Part shown: positions 32,942 to 41,873 of the stretch, piece after piece
How positions within the stretch are numbered: the first letter of the stretch is position 1
How the letters are laid out: every line of letters begins with the position of its first letter
Source: Minisyncoccota bacterium
GTDB lineage: Bacteria; Patescibacteriota; Minisyncoccia; Phycocordibacterales; PALSA-1337
Assembly (NCBI GenBank): GCA_041662725.1
Contig: JBAZRX010000004.1
Coordinates: forward strand, 2,668-66,667
Direction of reading: 5' to 3'
DNA length: 64,000 nt
Notes under the pieces: generated by a model
The model's database searches: none
What the model was told of the DNA's origin: nothing
Seen by the model: the letters and a program-made list of their open reading frames with translations, nothing else
Translations under genes and position numbers: made by a program

Positions 32942-33022
32942 AGAGGCCTCGCCTCGAGGCGAGGCCTCGAGGTGCCTCTAGAGGTCAGGCCTCCACACCG
33001 CCGCAGAGGCCTGACCTCTATG
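32942..33022. repeat. REP core + full hairpin module (GAGGTCAGGCCTC-CACACCGCCGCA-GAGGCCTGACCTC)
   Basis: AGAGGCCTCGCCTCGAGGCGAGGCCTCGAGGTGCCTCTAGAGGTCAGGCCTCCACACCGCCGCAGAGGCCTGACCTCTATGG. Overlaps the giant gene's TAG stop. Confidence 0.9.
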
Positions 33023-36000
33023 GTGCTGGAGGAGTGGTTGTTTCTGGTGCAGTTGTTGGACTTGGTACAGAGGTTGGAGCAGGTGTAGGGTCAATCGTGA
33101 CCGTTACGCTTGGAGTTGGTGAAGTTTCCGGAGATGCTGTAGGAGCTGGAGTTACTGTTGCTGGATCTGGAGTAGTGCTTGGTGTAGGGGTTGGGGTTAC
33201 TACTGTTGGATCTGGAGTAGCACTTGGAGTTGGTGTAGGCGTTATTGTAGGAGTTGGGGTTACATCAGGTGTTACTACAGTTGAAGATGGAGCTGTTTCT
33301 GGGGTTGTTGTTGCACTTGGTGTTGTCGTTGCGCTTGGTGTAGGAGTTGGAGTTACTGTTGCTGGAGTAGCGCTTGGAGTTGGTGTAGGCGTTATTGTAG
33401 GAGTTGGGGTTACATCAGGTGTTACTACAGTTGAAGATGGAGCTGTTTCTGGGGTTGTTTCTGGTGCTGTCGAAGGTGCTGGAGTAATAACCGGTGTAGG
33501 TGTAGGAGTAATAACTGGTGTTGGAGTTGGTGTAGGTGTGATACATATTCCTTGGACTTTATTCCACTCGCCGTTCTTAATGTTTATACAATATACTTGA
33601 CCTGTATTTTGATCAACGAATTCCAAACCTTGAGAAATTGCGGCAGTCTGTGTCTTGATAGTTTGTGTTTTGATATTATCTGTTTGAAGATCTGTGAAGA
33701 CTGCTGATTTTGCACTAATCTTTTCAACTACCCAATCTCCTGCTTTGGCTATGAGATCCTTTACTGCTTGCGCTATTCTTTCAATGAATGACTCTGAATT
33801 GATGTACTTCGTTGTAGAAGCAAGATCTGAAACAAGTGCTGTAGTTGAGGCGAACAATGCATTCACACGATCTCTGAGGCTAACAAATCCTAAGGTGGTA
33901 GAAGCTAATGAAATCTTCGTAGAATCAAGTGCTGTGATAGCAGAAGCAAGATCTGATGTGGTGGTTGATAGAATCTTAGAAATTGAGATGTTAGCAGAAC
34001 CTAATTCTTGTACAGCTCCAACTAAGTAAGGAGTAAGTCCTGCGTAGTTCATTGTGTAATAACCATCCTTACCTTGTGATACTAGATCTGGGAAGACTGG
34101 TAACACTTCCTGAGCAATGAGACCGGCATGTAATGATGTGCTATCGCTTTCTGAACCCCAATTATATTTAGTTGGTCTAAGTTTCATTATAGAAGCAAGA
34201 CTAGATGAAGCAGAAATTGGAGTTATGTTTTTCTTCAAGCGACTATCAGAAGAACAATTCAATGAACCTGTAGTTGGGTTGATGTAACAAGAACCTGTAG
34301 AGTTTGTAAATTGAGCAACGACTCCAGATAATTCATTATTTCCGACAGCCAATAAGTAGCTTGGACTTGATGTTCCGATACCAACGTTTCCTTCTCCTGT
34401 AATTCTGAAACGTTCAACTGGAGCTGAACCCTCAATATTATTAAGAGAAATTGCAAAGTCCATATTCGTTGATGTTCTAATGGCATCAAGGAATACTTTT
34501 CCATCATTTGTGTTATTGAATGGATCTGAAGAAACTGCATATGTTATACGAGAACGTGCTCCAGTCGTTGTGCCAAAGTTTACTGCGCGCAAACCTTCAA
34601 AAGTATCATCAGTTACTCCGAGTGCTTGGAATGAACCACCAGCGATACGTGCTTGTCCTTCAGATGTAATAGTACTTATATCATTTGAAATAGTACCTCC
34701 TGTTATTGAGAACTTCGTAACAGGATTTGCTACACCGATTCCAACATTTCCATTTTGCATAACGGTTAATCCTGAAATACCAGCTACATTCAATCCTCCA
34801 GCAAATGTTGAAGTCGCTGTTGTTGAAGTTGCTGTAAATGATTCAGCAATTGATTTTTCGGCTTGTGACTCGGCAATCAAAGCTTCTAATTCTGAATTTG
34901 AAGTAATTAGAACGTTAATCTTTTGCTCCTGCTCTTGAATAGCCTTAACAATAATAGGTGTGATCCTTGCATAATCAACATTGTCTGCTCTACCATCTTT
35001 ATCAAAACCAACAACTTGTGGTGCTGTACTTGCCATTTCTTCAGCAATGAAACCTATTTGATTTCCAAGAACTCCTATTTCTGGTTTATAATCAAAGGAA
35101 ACTGGTCTCATCTTCATAACTTCTGCAAGTCCCATACCAATATCTTCAATATTATCCTTATAACGTAACGATGATGGATTACATGCCGTGGTTGAGTATG
35201 AAAGCAATCCATTGGCATCCTGACAGATGTATCTAACACCCGCTGAGCTACTCAAGCTAGGTAAAACTAAACCGCCCCCATCAGTAACCCTCATTCCCTC
35301 AGAACCGCCTTTATTACTAAAGATTAGATCTGGACTATCTCCAGTAGAAACACCTATATAATAATTAGTATTGGTAGTTCCACGACCAATTCCTAGAGTA
35401 AATAGATCCGCTGAATTCAAATATGTCCTGCCACCGTCAACAACAAGTTTTGCAGAACCATTAGTCGTTGTACCAATACGTACGCCACCTCCGCTATTAA
35501 TTCTCATTCTTTCACTTCCATTAGTCCAGAAACTATTAGCACCAGTAGCACTGCTGTTAAACATTTCAAGATTATTCCTACGATCAGTAGTGCTAAAGGC
35601 GGAATTAATATATTGAATTGTTCCACCAACTGTTCCGCTTTCTGAAAGAGTCACACGTGTTGAACCTGAACTAAGTGTTGAGTCAATATTTAGGATAGTA
35701 TTGGCTGCACCTGCAAGCGCCAGAATTTGAGTTGGAGAAGTCGTCCCAATTCCCACATTCCCTCCACTTGTTGCAAAGTAAGCATTACCTGTTGAACCAA
35801 TCTGAGTCGTTGAAGCAAACCCTAGTGTTGTAAGTCCTGTGACATTTAATGTTGAAGCAAGTGTAGTTGCACCAGAAACATTCAATGTAGAAGTTGCTGT
35901 CATTGCTCCGCCGAAGAATGAGGTGCCGGAGACATAGGAGTTGCCTTGGACTGCAAGTGTTTTTGAAGGAGTGGTGGTACCAATTCCAACATTGCCAGAT

Positions 36001-39000: not shown

Positions 39001-41873
39001 CTTGTTGCAAAGTAAGCAGAACCTGTTGAAGTCAAAGCTGTAGTAGAAGCATATGTAGCAATTAACTTAGTACCATCAAAGGTTAGAGCTGAGTTATCTG
39101 TTAGCATTCCTCCTGTTGAAGCGAATGGAACTCTACCTGATGTGAGTGAGGAGATAGATAGAGCGGTGGTGGAAGCGTATGGGAAAGTTGAAGCAGTTGT
39201 TGAAGTAGAAGTGATCGCTCCGCCAACAAAGAGATTACTTGAAATGTAAGCGGAGCCTTGAACTGCAAACTTCGTTGAAGGAGTGGTAGTACCGATGCCG
39301 ATGTTACCATTAAATATAGTATTGGTATTTGCAAAAGTTACAGCATTTGTTGAATAAGAATTTATTGTATCAAGCCATAAAGTCCCGCCGTGGATAGCTG
39401 CACTCCCAACTACATCTAATTTATAAGCTGGATTAGTTGTTCCAATTCCCACATTCCCTCCTGTTGTTGCCAAATAAGTTGAACCCGTTGTCGTTAATTG
39501 AGTAGTTGAAGCATAACCAAGAGTTGTAAGTCCTGTGACATTCAAAGTTGATCCAAGTGTCGTTGCTCCTGAAACATCCAATGTAGAAGTTGCTGTCATT
39601 GCTCCACCGAAGAATGATGTGCCAGAAACATATGAGTTACCTTGAACTGCAAAAGTTGTAGCTGGTGAAGTTGTTCCAACACCAACAAAACTATTTAGAG
39701 TATCAATAGATAAGACTGGGGAAGAAGCCGCGTTGGTGAATGAGAAAGTATTTAAACTATTTGATTGTGGTGTAAAGACGAGAGCTGGATTTGAACCATT
39801 CAAAGCAATCGTCGTACTACCAAATTCATTTGTTGAGAAAGTTACTTCTCCAGAAGATCCTTCATACTGAATACGAAGCTGTGGAGTTGAAGCTGAAGAT
39901 AATGCTAACGAACCACTTGAGATAGAACCGCCTTGATAAACATTTCCACTATTATCAACTCTGAAAAGAACTGCGCCTGAAGTATCTGTGTAATTTATAA
40001 AATCTCCAGATGGAGCTGTATCAGTATTGCGTACTGCCATGATCATCGTGTCACCATTATTTTGTTGATGAATAGCAAGATTAGCAGATGGTGAAGTTGT
40101 ACCGATACCAATGTTACCTAAATTATTCCAAATACCTGAACCTGGGAAGTAAGCTATGTCTGAAACTGAAATCTGTGTAGTGGAAGCATTTGATAATGTC
40201 GCCAACCCGATGACATCAAGAGTTGAAGAAACTGTAACTGCTCCATTGAACAAACTTGTATTGTTTACGACAAGTACAGAAGTTGTAGTCGTACCACTTA
40301 CTGTTAATTTTCCAGCTGCTGAAAGATCTCCAGTGAAAGTTCCTGTTGAACCAGAGAATGATGAACCTGAAATAGTTGCACCTGAAATACTTACATCAGA
40401 TATATTACCGCCTGCAATCGTTATATTCGTTAAAGTACCTCCTTTAGATAAATTAGAAATGACATCAGCGATAGTTTTTCCTAAATTGTCATAAACAACA
40501 ACCGTCTGTCTTATATCATGACTAGTATTGTTTGCTATCAAAGATTCCAAATTCGTTAACCTACTATATATAGAGGGATCTACTGCATTCAAGTAAGTAA
40601 TTTGCTGTTGCGTGATCACTCTGGTATTAGTAGTGTTAGCGGCAATAGTGTTTGTTGTTGTAGAAACATTCAACTTACCACCGGTTAGAACAGTAGTATC
40701 AGTGTTATCAGAGTTTGCGACAACATTATTTCTATAATCATCTGGAATACTACCTTGAGCATCACCCGAGAATACCAACACCATCGGTTTGTCATCCGAG
40801 TTACTACCTTGAGTATCACCCGAAAGTACTAAAGTTACAGGTTTATCATCTATACCAAGAAAGTCTCTAACTGATGCAATTAAGTTTTTCTTTTTATTTG
40901 ACCACCAATTACCAACTGAAGAATTAACTCCTTCTACAATACTTGCTACATGTTTAACATTTGAACCTCTCTCTATCTTTGCAGAATTAGTCAAAATAGA
41001 TTCAACCATATCTATACCCTGCAAAAATGGAATGGTTGTCTTGGCTAACATAGAAACCGCACTTGATGGACTATCTATAAAAACAAAACCAATGATCATT
41101 CCGACTCCAACTAAAGTTCCGGCAGCATAACTATAAGACTTTCTACCAAATTCCATCGGAGACTTCACCGACCTTGCTCGCTTAAATAATTTAGTTGTTA
41201 CATTCTCGTTAGATCTATCAGAAAATTTAACCTCCAATCTACTGCCATGTAAATCTCTATTTTTTGAATCACTTTCTCCATCCGAGATATTAGAAGCTAC
41301 AAAGGGATTATGGGCTGTTTTAGACAATCTCGGCAAGAAAGATTCCTCATCCTGAGCATAACTAATTTTCCACTTTAATGGTGTAGGAATTGATGACGAT
41401 TCATAATCCTCGCCACGTGATAATTTTGAATTATTATTAGATGCAAAAACTGGAATTGTAGATTCAATATTCTGCTTTTCTGATTTTAAAGATACAGTTT
41501 TTGATTCCGAGATTGATTCAGAATCTAAAGAATTTTTAGAGGTGGTTGTAGAAAATAATTCCTGTATTTCTTGTTCATCAGCTGGGAAAATCTGTGGTTG
41601 TTTTTTAACGCATCCAAAATGTTTTCGTGTATTTTCTTTGTACTCAAGAAGGGCTTCCTCGTCTATGTACCAGGTTCGCCCGAACATCTTGGCGGGAACT
41701 TTACCAGAACGGCAAAGTTGGCCAACATAATCGTTTGTGTACTTAGTTATCTCGGCACCTCGTCTGGACGAGATATAGGCTTTTCCCTCAATGAGAATTG
41801 AATCTTTCATTCGCAGGTAATTATACATCAGCATTCTTTTTTTTTGTTCAAAATTTTTCTGTGGATAACGCAT
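33018..41873 (-). CDS. giant (2951 aa) membrane-anchored surface protein: N-terminal excisionase/MerR-like HTH, one TM helix, tail-fibre-like repeat arrays, two peptidase-S74 intramolecular-chaperone domains, C-terminal Pro/Thr-rich tail
   Basis: aa ~35-75 [40 protein letters not shown] matches the HTH_17 pattern. TM at aa ~247-266 ([18 protein letters not shown]). Repeated [18 protein letters not shown] / [25 protein letters not shown] blocks follow. S74-like [12 protein letters not shown]...IGFIAEEM...VDYARI (DNA ~34850-35175) and [13 protein letters not shown]...GLIAQEV...MNYAGL (DNA ~34000-34250). (TP)n tail encoded at 33030-33560. Confidence 0.7.

Follow-up and report, generated by a model that had tools for sequence, protein, structure and literature searches.

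The reverse strand of the window (the whole 64 kb stretch of DNA analysed here) holds an unbroken open reading frame of 2951 codons at 33018..41873, and the gene that it contains, of about 2,930 codons, is a real gene from an ultra-small candidate phyla radiation bacterium. The features of the gene and of the region ahead of it are as follows, with residues numbered along the mechanical frame.

42211..42459, + strand, divergent neighbouring gene of the MerR family, 82 aa (Pfam MerR, 37.7 bits)
41860..41868, - strand, TTATCCACA, a 9-mer that matches the DnaA-box consensus exactly and lies about 50 nt ahead of the M22 ATG
41846-41851, - strand, TTGAAC, -35-like hexamer, with a 20-nt spacer to TATAAT in which an A9 tract lies
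41820..41825, - strand, TATAAT, putative -10 hexamer read from the sequence, 9 nt ahead of the M22 ATG
33018..41810, - strand, likeliest coding sequence (2930 aa, M22 to stop), from homolog N-termini and the promoter within codons 1-21
41616..41810, - strand, cytoplasmic winged helix-turn-helix (HTH) of HTH_17/excisionase type (aa 22-86), from profiles and an AlphaFold model
41136..41615, - strand, cytoplasmic low-complexity linker (aa 87-246) with a conserved short motif inside
within 41319-41366, - strand, linker motif Y-x2-[DE]-x3-[LFMI]2-P (aa 173-182), from motif counts
41076..41135, - strand, single transmembrane (TM) helix, a signal anchor, N-in/C-out (aa 247-266), from hydropathy and charge
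40119..41075, - strand, extracellular juxtamembrane or base region (aa 267-585), sharing homology with the corresponding region in other HTH-TM fibre proteins
35175..40118, - strand, main fibre array (aa 586-2233), from DNA repeats D7, D8, D11, D18 and D20 and profile matches
34836..35174, - strand, Peptidase_S74 intramolecular chaperone domain 1 (aa 2234-2346), dyad S2234/K2239 in SSLRYK
34251..34835, - strand, second, short fibre module (aa 2347-2541), from DNA repeat D20 and a model
33864..34250, - strand, Peptidase_S74 intramolecular chaperone domain 2 (aa 2542-2670), dyad S2542/K2547 in SDSRLK
33540..33863, - strand, post-S74 region (aa 2671-2778), read from the sequence, with a similar C-terminal region in one related locus (L053)
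33021..33539, - strand, Pro/Thr-rich C-terminal tail (aa 2779-2951), from composition and a tandem duplication

The mechanical frame runs further upstream, to 41873. Homologous proteins start with MKDSILIEG and the first 21 codons of the mechanical frame overlap a position-conserved promoter (TTATCCACA and TATAAT), so the true start is most likely M22, with its ATG at 41810. The initial annotation had given a protein of 2951 aa, of which the frame stands and the start is corrected; the HTH and TM helix are both kept with either M22 or M1.

Related loci were compared in a set of 80 retained out of 136 genome hits, whose source records are nearly all Patescibacteria or metagenome-assembled genomes. 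The gene lies in conserved housekeeping synteny with the small merR, gatB and obg, and is also flanked by genes for an AI-2E transporter, TGT, LOG and an aldolase; gatB adjoins it in 66 of the 80 loci, and a divergent merR is found 250-1,000 nt upstream in 48. The small MerR neighbour is a candidate regulator of the locus. A scan of the flanking ORFs and of the ten largest ORFs elsewhere turned up no phage gene.

The 9-mer occurs as a perfect copy only twice in the 64 kb, one of these being the copy ahead of this gene. With at most one mismatch, 61 of the 80 related loci have it on the gene strand, where random 200-nt windows have it in 4.6% of cases. Its position is fixed in 48 of those 61; similar boxes also precede HTH-TM paralogs located away from gatB. 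On sequence comparison, TTATCCACA is an element conserved ahead of HTH-TM genes. The box lies 34 nt from the -10 hexamer here, with a peak of 31-32 nt in relatives, and the short distance from that hexamer to the M22 ATG suggests a nearly leaderless mRNA. Transcription would start from this conserved promoter, possibly under the control of DnaA, the neighbouring small MerR or the HTH itself.

The excisionase-type HTH proposed for the N-terminus has both profile and structural support. Pfam HTH_17 matched the isolated N-terminus at aa 40-81 with 26.5 bits, just under the cut-off of 27, and TIGR01764 'excise' with 21.9 bits, while the same domain in family relatives scored 40-55 bits, above the HTH_17 cut-off. 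The AlphaFold model (pLDDT 86.6) is a winged HTH with Xis, BldC and MerR as its nearest structures. It differs from these characterised families (HTH_17, TIGR01764) in being tethered to a membrane helix, in an extra N-terminal beta-hairpin and in its own near-invariant signature Y..DY.GQL[CA]R, with DNA binding only putative; the residues of Y..DY.GQLCR..K...G..W are invariant across the first 11 family members. A true regulatory DNA-binding role is possible, since the domain is basic (pI 9.1; family median 8.8) and retains the excisionase wing G-R-x-W.

Such a role would be central if the protein were a membrane-tethered transcription factor or one-component sensor, in which contact or a ligand is perceived by the ectodomain and transcription is altered by the HTH, tethered or proteolytically released, perhaps at the promoters with a TTATCCACA box that drive its own gene and gatB. 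A bona fide basic winged HTH whose structural neighbours are mostly DNA binders fits this reading, and a fixed-position 9-mer that extends to gatB-distant paralogs would suit autoregulation. However, CbpM and DafA, also among the structural neighbours, share the fold yet bind proteins rather than DNA.

The linker is disordered and carries a conserved Y..[DE]...LLP motif, the general form of which occurs in 119 of the 233 linkers of the family and in 0.09% of shuffled ones; its median distance to the TM helix that follows is 69 aa. The single TM helix of the initial annotation was recovered as the sole segment with Kyte-Doolittle hydropathy of at least 1.6 (19-residue window), starting at aa 247-255 and peaking at 1.93 at 248. 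There are seven K/R residues ahead of this segment and none behind it, indicating an N-in topology. The Pfam scan of the base region (aa 267-585) gave no match.

The N-domain profile matched 7,193 clusters at 50% identity, and 138 of the 150 best matches have exactly one TM helix. The HTH is retained in related genomes, and thousands of patescibacterial proteins have the HTH-TM module at their N-terminus; the architecture described as highly unusual is real as a domain combination, but it is no one-off, and some members are fused to fibres. In its commonest form the protein is about 320 aa long, and its extracellular domain is small and conserved; in several related genomes HTH-TM is fused to fibre-like ectodomains of multiple thousands of residues, some with S74. 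Across the cassette, ectodomains range from a few tens of residues to more than 3,100 and are unrelated in sequence. Positional orthologs span about 250 to more than 3,390 aa with mutually unrelated ectodomains, closer relatives are 45-58% identical in the N-domain with ectodomains at most 30% identical or unrelated, and Pfam detected no domain in the ectodomains of four large positional orthologs.

This variation bears on two readings. One cassette bearing unrelated ectodomains, with no recognisable sensor domain, is difficult to reconcile with a sensor, and a regulator made 1:1 with a 300-kDa fibre would be uneconomical. The protein could also be a fibre for envelope structure or self-interaction, serving as a spacer, as a coat resembling a glycocalyx or S-layer, or in kin adhesion or a biofilm matrix, whose HTH-TM part sits, like RodZ, on a cytoskeletal or divisome protein. 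RodZ is an HTH-TM-extracellular protein whose HTH binds MreB, and RodZ and the ToxR/CadC-type regulators share with this protein a cytoplasmic HTH, linker, single TM helix and extracytoplasmic domain; the likeness is one of layout only, as the HTH is Xre in RodZ and an OmpR winged helix in ToxR. The conserved locus and the short commonest form look housekeeping, and the linker motif suggests a protein partner. Extreme variation in ectodomain length and sequence at one locus is, however, typical of partner-driven diversifying selection, and the closest characterised cellular homologs serve prey recognition, which leaves an envelope role doubtful.

In about ten loci with a separate HTH-TM gene (about 250-660 aa), a giant fibre gene with a signal peptide lies on the same strand no more than 1.6 kb downstream. 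Two of these fibres run past the end of their locus (L004, >2,834 aa; L038, >2,840 aa), and a third, of 1,226 aa, carries an S74 domain (L077). An HTH-TM gene heading a surface-protein cluster recalls ToxR-type activators, in keeping with the sensor reading; genes split there and joined here provide a gene-fusion (Rosetta-stone) argument for a fibre anchored by HTH-TM.

The roughly 2,685 extracellular residues consist of beta-helix or fibre modules. The main array interleaves stalk segments and modules some 100 aa long, with capping-loop motifs between them, and G[NSFYG][VI][GR][IV]G[TV] has 19 matches from aa 586 to 2495. These copies agree with the capping-loop consensus V-G-G/N-pi-x-x-P-x-x-x-L of the mosaic adhesive trimer (MAT) fibres of Bdellovibrio bacteriovorus, such as Bd3182, Bd1334 and Bd2439, which function in prey recognition (PMC10769870). 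Sequence matches in the PDB included MAT Bd1334 (8oml, E=7e-4), Bd3182 (8ojn) and Bd2439 (8ol4), a T4-type distal fibre (6f45) and MyRF, similarity to the solved MAT structures being weak (E 7e-4 to 1e-2). Together with matches to PHROG tail-fibre families at E=4e-73 and 1.5e-50, the 19 motif copies bear out the tail-fibre-like repeats first noted. The first 99 nt of the short module are 82% identical to 38410-38508, the motif region near aa ~1122 (D20). The monomer model of the fibre module reached a pLDDT of only 40-75.

Both predicted S74 domains were confirmed, with 93.1 bits over the whole protein in two stretches: copy 1, scored by itself at aa 2234-2288, reached 41.1 bits against a cut-off of 22, and copy 2 spans aa 2542-2598. 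The catalytic S and K, near-invariant in an alignment of 26 sequences, are present in both copies, and a cysteine pair lies ahead of each (C2217/C2231 and C2529/C2540). The structures matched by a model of aa 2345-2665 are those of the MyRF ICA domain, T5 pb1, the endoNF chaperone and MAT fibres. In the five other double-S74 proteins found, the two copies are adjacent, back to back. The internal copy here is atypical and may be non-cleaving or differently employed, because internal cleavage would throw away a folded fibre module. The residues from 2671 to 2778, in which a Pfam scan gave no significant match, appear to be helical at first and then to form a small hairpin that holds two cysteines (C2762/C2777). 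The tail has the Pro-Thr composition initially described (30% Pro and 34% Thr at aa 2851-2951) and contains a 150-nt tandem duplication (D12, 99% identity).

In phage fibres S74 nucleates a trimeric beta-helix and then cuts itself off. The Ser-Lys dyad is common to phage fibres and tailspikes (K1F endosialidase 3gw6, T5 pb1 4uw8, T4 gp37-type 6f45), S74 domains are typical of phage fibres and endosialidases, and tblastn found matches in the tail fibres of Thermus, Pelagibacter and Synechococcus phages, which together with the stronger PHROG match could indicate a part of a virion or tailocin, or what is left of a recent prophage, instead of a cellular protein. Such an origin is highly improbable given the housekeeping neighbours, a locus order conserved in most related genomes and an N-terminus that is a cytoplasmic HTH and TM anchor, not a tail-attachment domain. 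Unlike phage fibres, the protein lies outside any virion gene set, is membrane-anchored, and has a second internal S74 and 280 aa more past the last chaperone. Identity to phage fibres is only 25-37%, and zero matches cover 80% of the query. Of the suggested co-opted prophage fibre, the distant module homology holds and the prophage location does not.

To our knowledge, MyRF (myelin regulatory factor) is the sole characterised protein combining a DNA-binding domain, S74/ICA and a TM helix, and it (7dc3) is the best fold match to S74 copy 2. Its DNA-binding domain is of Ndt80 type, as opposed to excisionase/MerR type here, and its ICA is cytoplasmic, placed between that domain and the TM helix, so that cutting liberates a transcription factor. 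Here both S74 domains are across the membrane, about 2,000 residues from the HTH, and the cytoplasmic side has neither a cleavage site nor an S74 domain; cleavage therefore cannot free the HTH as in MyRF, and the one-component sensor raised in the initial annotation is unlikely.

The gene product probably forms a trimeric surface fibre resembling those of phages, anchored in type-II orientation in the membrane of a patescibacterial (Paceibacteria/Parcubacteria-type) cell and used for holding another cell or surface. By homology alone, trimerisation, cleavage and surface display are expected: after Sec-dependent export, three chains would trimerise from the C-terminal S74 domains toward the membrane, and self-cleavage at S2542 and S2234 would release two pieces, a middle one of 308 aa and a C-terminal one of 410 aa with the Pro/Thr tail, leaving in the membrane a fibre of about 2,200 aa from M22 to residue 2233. 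Scaled from MAT crystal structures, its array of about 1,650 aa would measure about 60-70 nm in length. The three cytoplasmic HTHs and linker motifs would link the fibre base to DNA or a conserved cytoplasmic partner, and would not act as a releasable transcription factor.

MAT fibres are the nearest likeness in kind: they are surface fibres that belong to a cell, not a phage, in a bacterium that attacks others of its domain, and they share, by sequence and fold matches, the beta-helix with capping-loop motif and an S74 chaperone-protease with SDxxxK. They differ in that a signal peptide leads into a beta-rich, conserved N-domain some 130 aa long, with solved fragments ending at 627-1,151, whereas the present protein has a cytoplasmic HTH and TM signal anchor, about 2,930 aa, two S74 domains and a 173-aa Pro/Thr tail, and belongs to a different phylum taken to be monoderm. 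Very large surface proteins of Patescibacteria have been proposed as host-interaction factors, and Paceibacteria attach to hosts (PMC13059738; PMC10936435). An attachment fibre of an epibiont is most likely, ahead of a sensor, and would recognise and grip another cell or surface by analogy with MAT and phage receptor-binding fibres. The HTH-TM part is then the conserved cytoplasmic anchor cassette, and HTH-linker-TM constitutes a large uncharacterised family, a lineage-specific module heading thousands of patescibacterial envelope proteins.

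The giant gene of the window, an open frame of 2951 codons at 33018..41873 on the minus strand, is best read as encoding a trimeric fibre for adhesion or recognition, with a type-II membrane anchor, in an epibiotic patescibacterium. All five elements named in the initial annotation, namely the HTH, the TM helix, the fibre repeats, the two peptidase-S74 domains and the Pro-Thr tail, are present, with residues counted here from the first Met of this frame. Its N-terminal homologues start with MKDSILIEG, which corresponds to M22 of the giant protein, and the 63 nt 5' of the M22 ATG contain TTATCCACA-(34 nt)-TATAAT-(9 nt)-ATG, in which TTATCCACA is identical to the DnaA-box consensus. 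Two perfect copies of TTATCCACA, 595 nt apart, occur in the 64-kb window:

41860-41868, minus strand (the gene's strand): perfect match upstream of the giant gene
42463-42471, plus strand: perfect match upstream of gatB

Of the 80 related loci retained from 136 genome matches to the N-domain, 61 have the box (TTATCCACA or TTATCCCCA, with at most one mismatch) on the gene's strand, and in 48 of these 61 it lies 131-160 nt 5' of the GQLCR codons; random 200-nt windows hold a box match in 4.6% of cases. The spacing between the box and a TATAAT-like hexamer peaks at 31-32 nt in the related loci. The promoter was recognised by this comparative alignment; a generic promoter and terminator scan did no better than on shuffles. 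Given the start of the homologues at M22 and the conserved box and -10 hexamer upstream of it, codons 1-21 are most likely promoter and not protein, which makes the gene proper 33018..41810, encoding 2930 aa on a nearly leaderless mRNA. A true start 3' of the TM helix was ruled out by the co-conservation of HTH, linker motif and TM and by the position of the promoter ahead of the HTH. The box may be bound by DnaA, by the small MerR protein encoded nearby or by the HTH-TM protein itself.

The box is also conserved at HTH-TM paralogues that do not adjoin gatB (L016, L025 and L032), and many relatives have an ATCTCGG-N4-5-CCGAGAT dyad between box and -10 that is missing from the window. The candidate -35 (TTGAAC) and candidate -10 (TATAAT) of the giant gene are 20 nt apart (41826-41851, minus strand), a spacing typical of MerR-activated promoters, and the spacer holds an A9 homopolymer, a possible slipped-strand phase-variation site for the surface protein. 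A role of the boxes in oriC was not adopted: only the two perfect boxes are present, 595 nt apart, one of them has a distance to the -10 hexamer and the start codon that is fixed across loci, and the GC skew passes here from + to -, which resembles a terminus more than an origin. Along the window, the cumulative GC skew has a plateau at 18-40 kb followed by a steady fall, a terminus-like + to - change. The one closed genome (L067, CP011215.1, record of 752,630 bp) has its homologous locus at 359-379 kb, ~49% of the way along, and the replication terminus may thus be close to the HTH-TM/gatB locus.

By fold, the N-domain is a winged HTH of the Xis/MerR type. The HTH_17 profile covers aa 40-81, with 21.1 bits in the full protein and 26.5 bits in aa 1-150 (cut-off 27), the NCBIfam model 'excise' gives 21.9 bits, and four of the six family members scanned clear the HTH_17 cut-off with 40-55 bits. 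These scores of the relatives place the N-domain in the excisionase/MerR winged-HTH class, with a signature that is the family's own. The domain scores 108.9 bits against the family profile and carries Y..DY.GQL[CA]R..K...G..W, followed by a linker and a single TM. A PDB sequence search with the N-domain profile gave no match, even at E=10, and structural placement was by fold comparison only. The domain is moderately basic, as is the family (pI 9.1, family median 8.8), and keeps the excisionase wing residues, which makes DNA binding plausible as far as sequence can indicate, yet CbpM and DafA have the same fold and bind proteins.

The TM is a single strongly hydrophobic segment starting at aa 247-255, and no second 19-residue window with a Kyte-Doolittle mean of at least 1.6 occurs elsewhere in the giant protein. 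Seven Lys/Arg lie in the 22 residues preceding the TM and none just past it, which makes the N-terminus cytoplasmic, in a signal-anchor arrangement of cytoplasmic HTH, 160-aa linker and TM. Linkers between HTH and TM in the family have a median of ~100 aa and are of low complexity, and 119 of 233 members contain the motif Y-x2-[DE]-x3-[LFMI]2-P, against 0.09% of shuffled linkers. This motif, ~69 aa ahead of the TM in the family and 76 aa ahead in the giant protein, has the look of a peptide on which a conserved partner docks.

The HTH-TM cassette belongs to a large family. The family profile (A2, built from the query and its ten first matches) retrieved 7,193 clusters at 50% identity at E<=1e-3 and 4,256 at E<=1e-10; among the best 150 of the 7,193, 138 have exactly one predicted TM, and all of them have two tandem domain copies. 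In nearly all family ORFs of the 80 loci the TM comes after the HTH. Databases list the family's proteins as 'helix-turn-helix domain-containing protein' or 'hypothetical protein'. The commonest form is ~320 aa, often has two tandem HTH copies (P0011, P0013, P0014, P0019, P0020 and others) and ends in a conserved extracellular domain, ...SFSDEV.V.PD.SGTAGVITPVF....G..F.YVLVPV, for which there was no Pfam match. The word-indexed protein search covered proteins of <1,000 aa, and full-length architectures were taken from the genome loci. The exact sequence of the giant protein, from M1 or from M22, has no public record; of the two neighbours only the MerR protein has one, on a 1.4-kb Logan contig.

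The titles of the 80 loci are nearly all Patescibacteria or unnamed MAGs, the named groups being Paceibacterota/Parcubacteria and Zambryski-, Taylor-, Lloyd-, Kaiser- and Campbellbacteria. One locus labelled as a flavobacterial MAG (L075, JBLHQB010000014.1, Patiriisocius sp.) carries the patescibacterial HTH-TM/gatB/obg synteny, so the public contig has probably been mis-binned. At ~37% GC, the window carries genes for GroEL, RNase J, PFOR, ADP-forming acetyl-CoA synthetase, TGT, Obg, GatB, LOG, aldolase and further housekeeping proteins, those for GatB, Obg, TGT, LOG and aldolase being neighbours of the giant gene. A MerR-family gene of 82 aa is divergent from the giant gene, with gatB and obg coming after it. 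Of the related loci, 66 of 80 have gatB adjoining the HTH-TM gene and 48 of 80 have a divergent small merR 250-1,000 nt upstream, and this synteny places the giant gene at a conserved locus of the lineage. The N-domain family and the small MerR are not close paralogues, as hhalign gave only 47% probability for the pair.

What this conserved locus encodes differs greatly, from ~250 aa to >3,390 aa. N-domains of closer relatives are 45-58% identical and the other parts of the proteins are not well conserved; ectodomains share at most 25-30% repeat-level identity or are unrelated, and four large positional orthologues have no Pfam domain outside the HTH. Scanned for phage genes, the flanking ORFs and the ten largest of the remaining ORFs had none. 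The prophage reading of the initial annotation fails on context and synteny, and a virion or prophage tail fibre is very unlikely, the neighbouring genes forming no phage structural cluster and the housekeeping synteny being conserved.

The ectodomain contains 19 GNVGIGT-type motifs between aa 586 and 2495, its internal repeat structure having been read from DNA repeats and motif positions, and matches PHROG tail-fibre families with E=4e-73 and 1.5e-50; identity to real phage fibres is 25-37%. S74 'tail fiber domain-containing proteins' are frequent in public data, with 2,688 at E<=1e-5, and all the named ones belong to Patescibacteria (Kaiser-, Campbell-, Pace-, Moranii-, Kerfeldbacteria and Minisyncoccota). 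A phmmer search against PDB sequences gave weak but consistent matches to Bdellovibrio fibres annotated as 'cell wall surface anchor family' (8oml, Bd1334, E=7e-4; 8ojn, Bd3182, 2e-3; 8ol4, Bd2439, 1e-2), besides a T4-type distal fibre tip with chaperone (6f45) and the intramolecular chaperone auto-processing (ICA) domain of MyRF (7dc3). In Foldseek, the model of aa 2345-2665 matched the fibres Bd2133, Bd1334, Bd3182 and Bd2439, with 8ond and 8oml at ~1e-3.

These Bdellovibrio proteins are the mosaic adhesive trimer (MAT) fibres, which have a signal peptide, a conserved beta-rich N-domain of ~130 aa, a meandering trimeric beta-helix with capping loops V-G-G/N-pi-x-x-P-x-x-x-L, and either an S74 chaperone-protease (SDxxxK) or another tip domain, and which are displayed on the predator surface with a role in prey handling (PMC10769870). 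The 19 repeat motifs of the giant protein fit the MAT capping-loop consensus, whereas its N-terminus consists of the cytoplasmic HTH, the 160-aa linker and the TM anchor where MAT proteins begin with the signal peptide and N-domain. MAT-like trimeric assembly, surface display and a function in prey or host handling are suggested by this likeness in sequence. The Bd2133 tip spans 142-150 Å in ~370 residues (PMC10769870), and scaled from it the 1,650-aa array would be ~60-70 nm long. Alternatively, the protein may be a structural or self-adhesion fibre. Its last 173 residues are Pro/Thr-rich, with a 150-nt tandem duplication inside.

Peptidase_S74 (PF13884) matches over two stretches with 93.1 bits, and the internal copy alone scores 41.1 bits (cut-off 22 for both). 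The catalytic Ser-x4-Lys dyad is S2234/K2239 in copy 1, the internal domain (SSLRYK, with Ser in place of the Asp of SDxxxK), and S2542/K2547 in copy 2 (SDSRLK); a Cys pair precedes each, and in alignment A4 both the Ser and the Lys column reach 90% conservation or more. In the model of aa 2345-2665, built with 26 sequences, pLDDT exceeds 90 for most of the chaperone part; it is 40-75 for the fibre module, which would be expected of one chain taken from a trimer. Copy 2 has an ICA fold, with Foldseek matches to 7dc3 (TM-score 0.67, target-normalised), T5 pb1 (4uw8) and the endoNF chaperone (3gw6). Two-copy S74 architecture was found in 5 of 117 related S74 proteins, with the copies back to back, whereas in the giant protein a 195-aa fibre module lies between them. 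The first 99 nt of this module are 82% identical to 38410-38508, in the region of aa ~1122, so the fibre-plus-S74 cassette seems to have arisen by duplication within the gene or by insertion. Cleavage by both copies would leave a fibre in the membrane, M22-2233, with an ectodomain of ~200 kDa per chain, and would release a 308-aa piece of 32 kDa and a 410-aa piece of 42 kDa, the latter with the PT tail and a helical/Cys-hairpin region. Alternatively, the internal copy may serve as a trimerisation node that does not cleave.

The order of these domains bears on the other proposal of the initial annotation, a membrane-bound one-component sensor. In MyRF the ICA domain lies between the DNA-binding domain and the TM, on one side of the membrane, and cleavage releases the former, whereas the giant protein has the order HTH (22-86), TM (247-266), S74 (2234-2346), S74 (2542-2670), from which S74 cleavage cannot free the HTH. 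The cassette is moreover promiscuous in its ectodomains, and the reading as a sensor or transcription factor is weakened, even with a DNA-binding-type fold and a conserved upstream box in its favour.

The pairing of cassette and fibre recurs as separate and as fused genes. In ~10 loci a separate HTH-TM gene (~250-660 aa) is followed on the same strand, within 1.6 kb, by secreted or surface genes, including giant signal-peptide proteins with GNVGIGT motifs. Examples of the downstream fibre genes are:

L004: >2,834 aa, runs off the locus end
L038: >2,840 aa, runs off the locus end
L009: >1,921 aa, runs off the locus end
L077: 1,226-aa fibre protein with an S74 domain

Fusion of the cassette with a GNVGIGT fibre-like ectodomain in one polypeptide is found in the window and in L021, L053, L063, L073 and L076. 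This gene-fusion (Rosetta-stone) pattern indicates that cassettes and fibres act together, and on these gene arrangements an anchoring or organising role appears to fit better than a generic regulatory one. Directly after the HTH-TM gene, eight loci (L004, L009, L038, L015, L016, L018, L029 and L037) have a conserved signal-peptide region MSS.NY.i.D.S.NF.G..S.S.NY...DT.GE.ATG...S.N....AGYQQ, either as its own ~260-aa protein ahead of the giant fibre gene or as the N-terminus of a larger downstream ORF; anchor, small secreted protein and fibre may form an operon-level unit.

It is conceivable, if improbable, that the cassette is a Paceibacteria-wide device by which surface fibres are physically linked with the chromosome or with gene expression. 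It would then be a transcription switch that is embedded in the membrane and senses contact, of which we know no described bacterial precedent. Three excisionase-like HTH per trimer would bind TTATCCACA-box DNA or the nucleoid, and fibre assembly or host contact would directly alter DNA tethering or surface-locus transcription. In the type-II-anchored fibre favoured here, assembly and maturation would be carried out by its own S74 domains, and the fibre base would be held by the lineage-specific cytoplasmic cassette, contacting DNA or a conserved protein.

A palindromic unit of 13 nt (GAGGCCTCGCCTC / GAGGCGAGGCCTC), GC-rich in a genome of 37% GC, also occurs in the window between 15,290 and 44,580, in at least 42 copies. 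Mostly 2-4 units stand in tandem, often beside a companion module of ~45 nt (GGCCGATTTAGCAAAATCGCCACTGGG). Examples of the palindromic units lie at:

44498-44577: obg
30969-31027 and 31220-31297: TGT
29903-29968: pfkB
23689-23925: PFOR
32943-33022 and 42482-42560: flanking the giant gene and merR

Many are in frame in housekeeping ORFs, giving EASPRGEAS / SRPRLE-type peptides in either orientation, and resemble the in-frame Rickettsia palindromic elements; in Obg the peptide occupies a loop that several homologues have 7-8 aa shorter. The mechanical gatB ORF start (42555-42600, plus strand) is an ATG inside such an element, the real start by orthologue alignment being ~16 codons further downstream (MTTTYLPTIGLEIH), and gatB has two insertions of ~20-30 aa relative to orthologues. 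The gene at 11451-14414 (minus strand) encodes a protein of 987 aa, a candidate for another surface or pilus-tip protein. It has an N-terminal methylation motif like that of type IV pilins and at least seven LVIVD beta-propeller repeats (129-nt DNA period), and the DNA of its Pro/Thr linker is similar to that of the giant gene's PT tail (repeat family D17). An AT-rich intergenic array at 47157-47384, upstream of the ORF 46391..47182 (minus strand), has ~28 copies of an 8-nt unit (ATTGTNNA) in a 70-nt inverted-repeat arrangement.

The literature searched on S74, endosialidase, tail-fibre or HTH_17 proteins in CPR does not describe this architecture, and a recent CPR pilus paper deals with unrelated proteins. 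The parts are already known in kind, as S74 fibre, excisionase-like HTH and signal anchor. Undescribed in that literature are the way these parts are combined, the fact that the combination recurs across Paceibacteria at a locus both conserved and hypervariable, the internal S74 domain and a promoter box equal to the DnaA-box consensus.

A large part of bacterial diversity belongs to the Patescibacteria (CPR), and to our knowledge almost nothing is known of how they recognise and hold their hosts beyond type IV pili. The cultivated Patescibacteria are all obligate epibionts, as described in PMC12206443. The giant gene is a concrete candidate here, a receptor-binding fibre of MAT-like or phage-like kind built into the membrane, with an ectodomain that is swapped or expanded between species at a conserved locus, as expected of a host-range determinant. 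Its internal S74 domain poses the general question of how very long trimeric fibres are nucleated and processed, and the uncharacterised family of ~7,000 clusters, with its excisionase-like HTH, linear motif and TM and its fusion with, and fission from, giant fibre genes, offers a handle on the envelope organisation of minimal cells.
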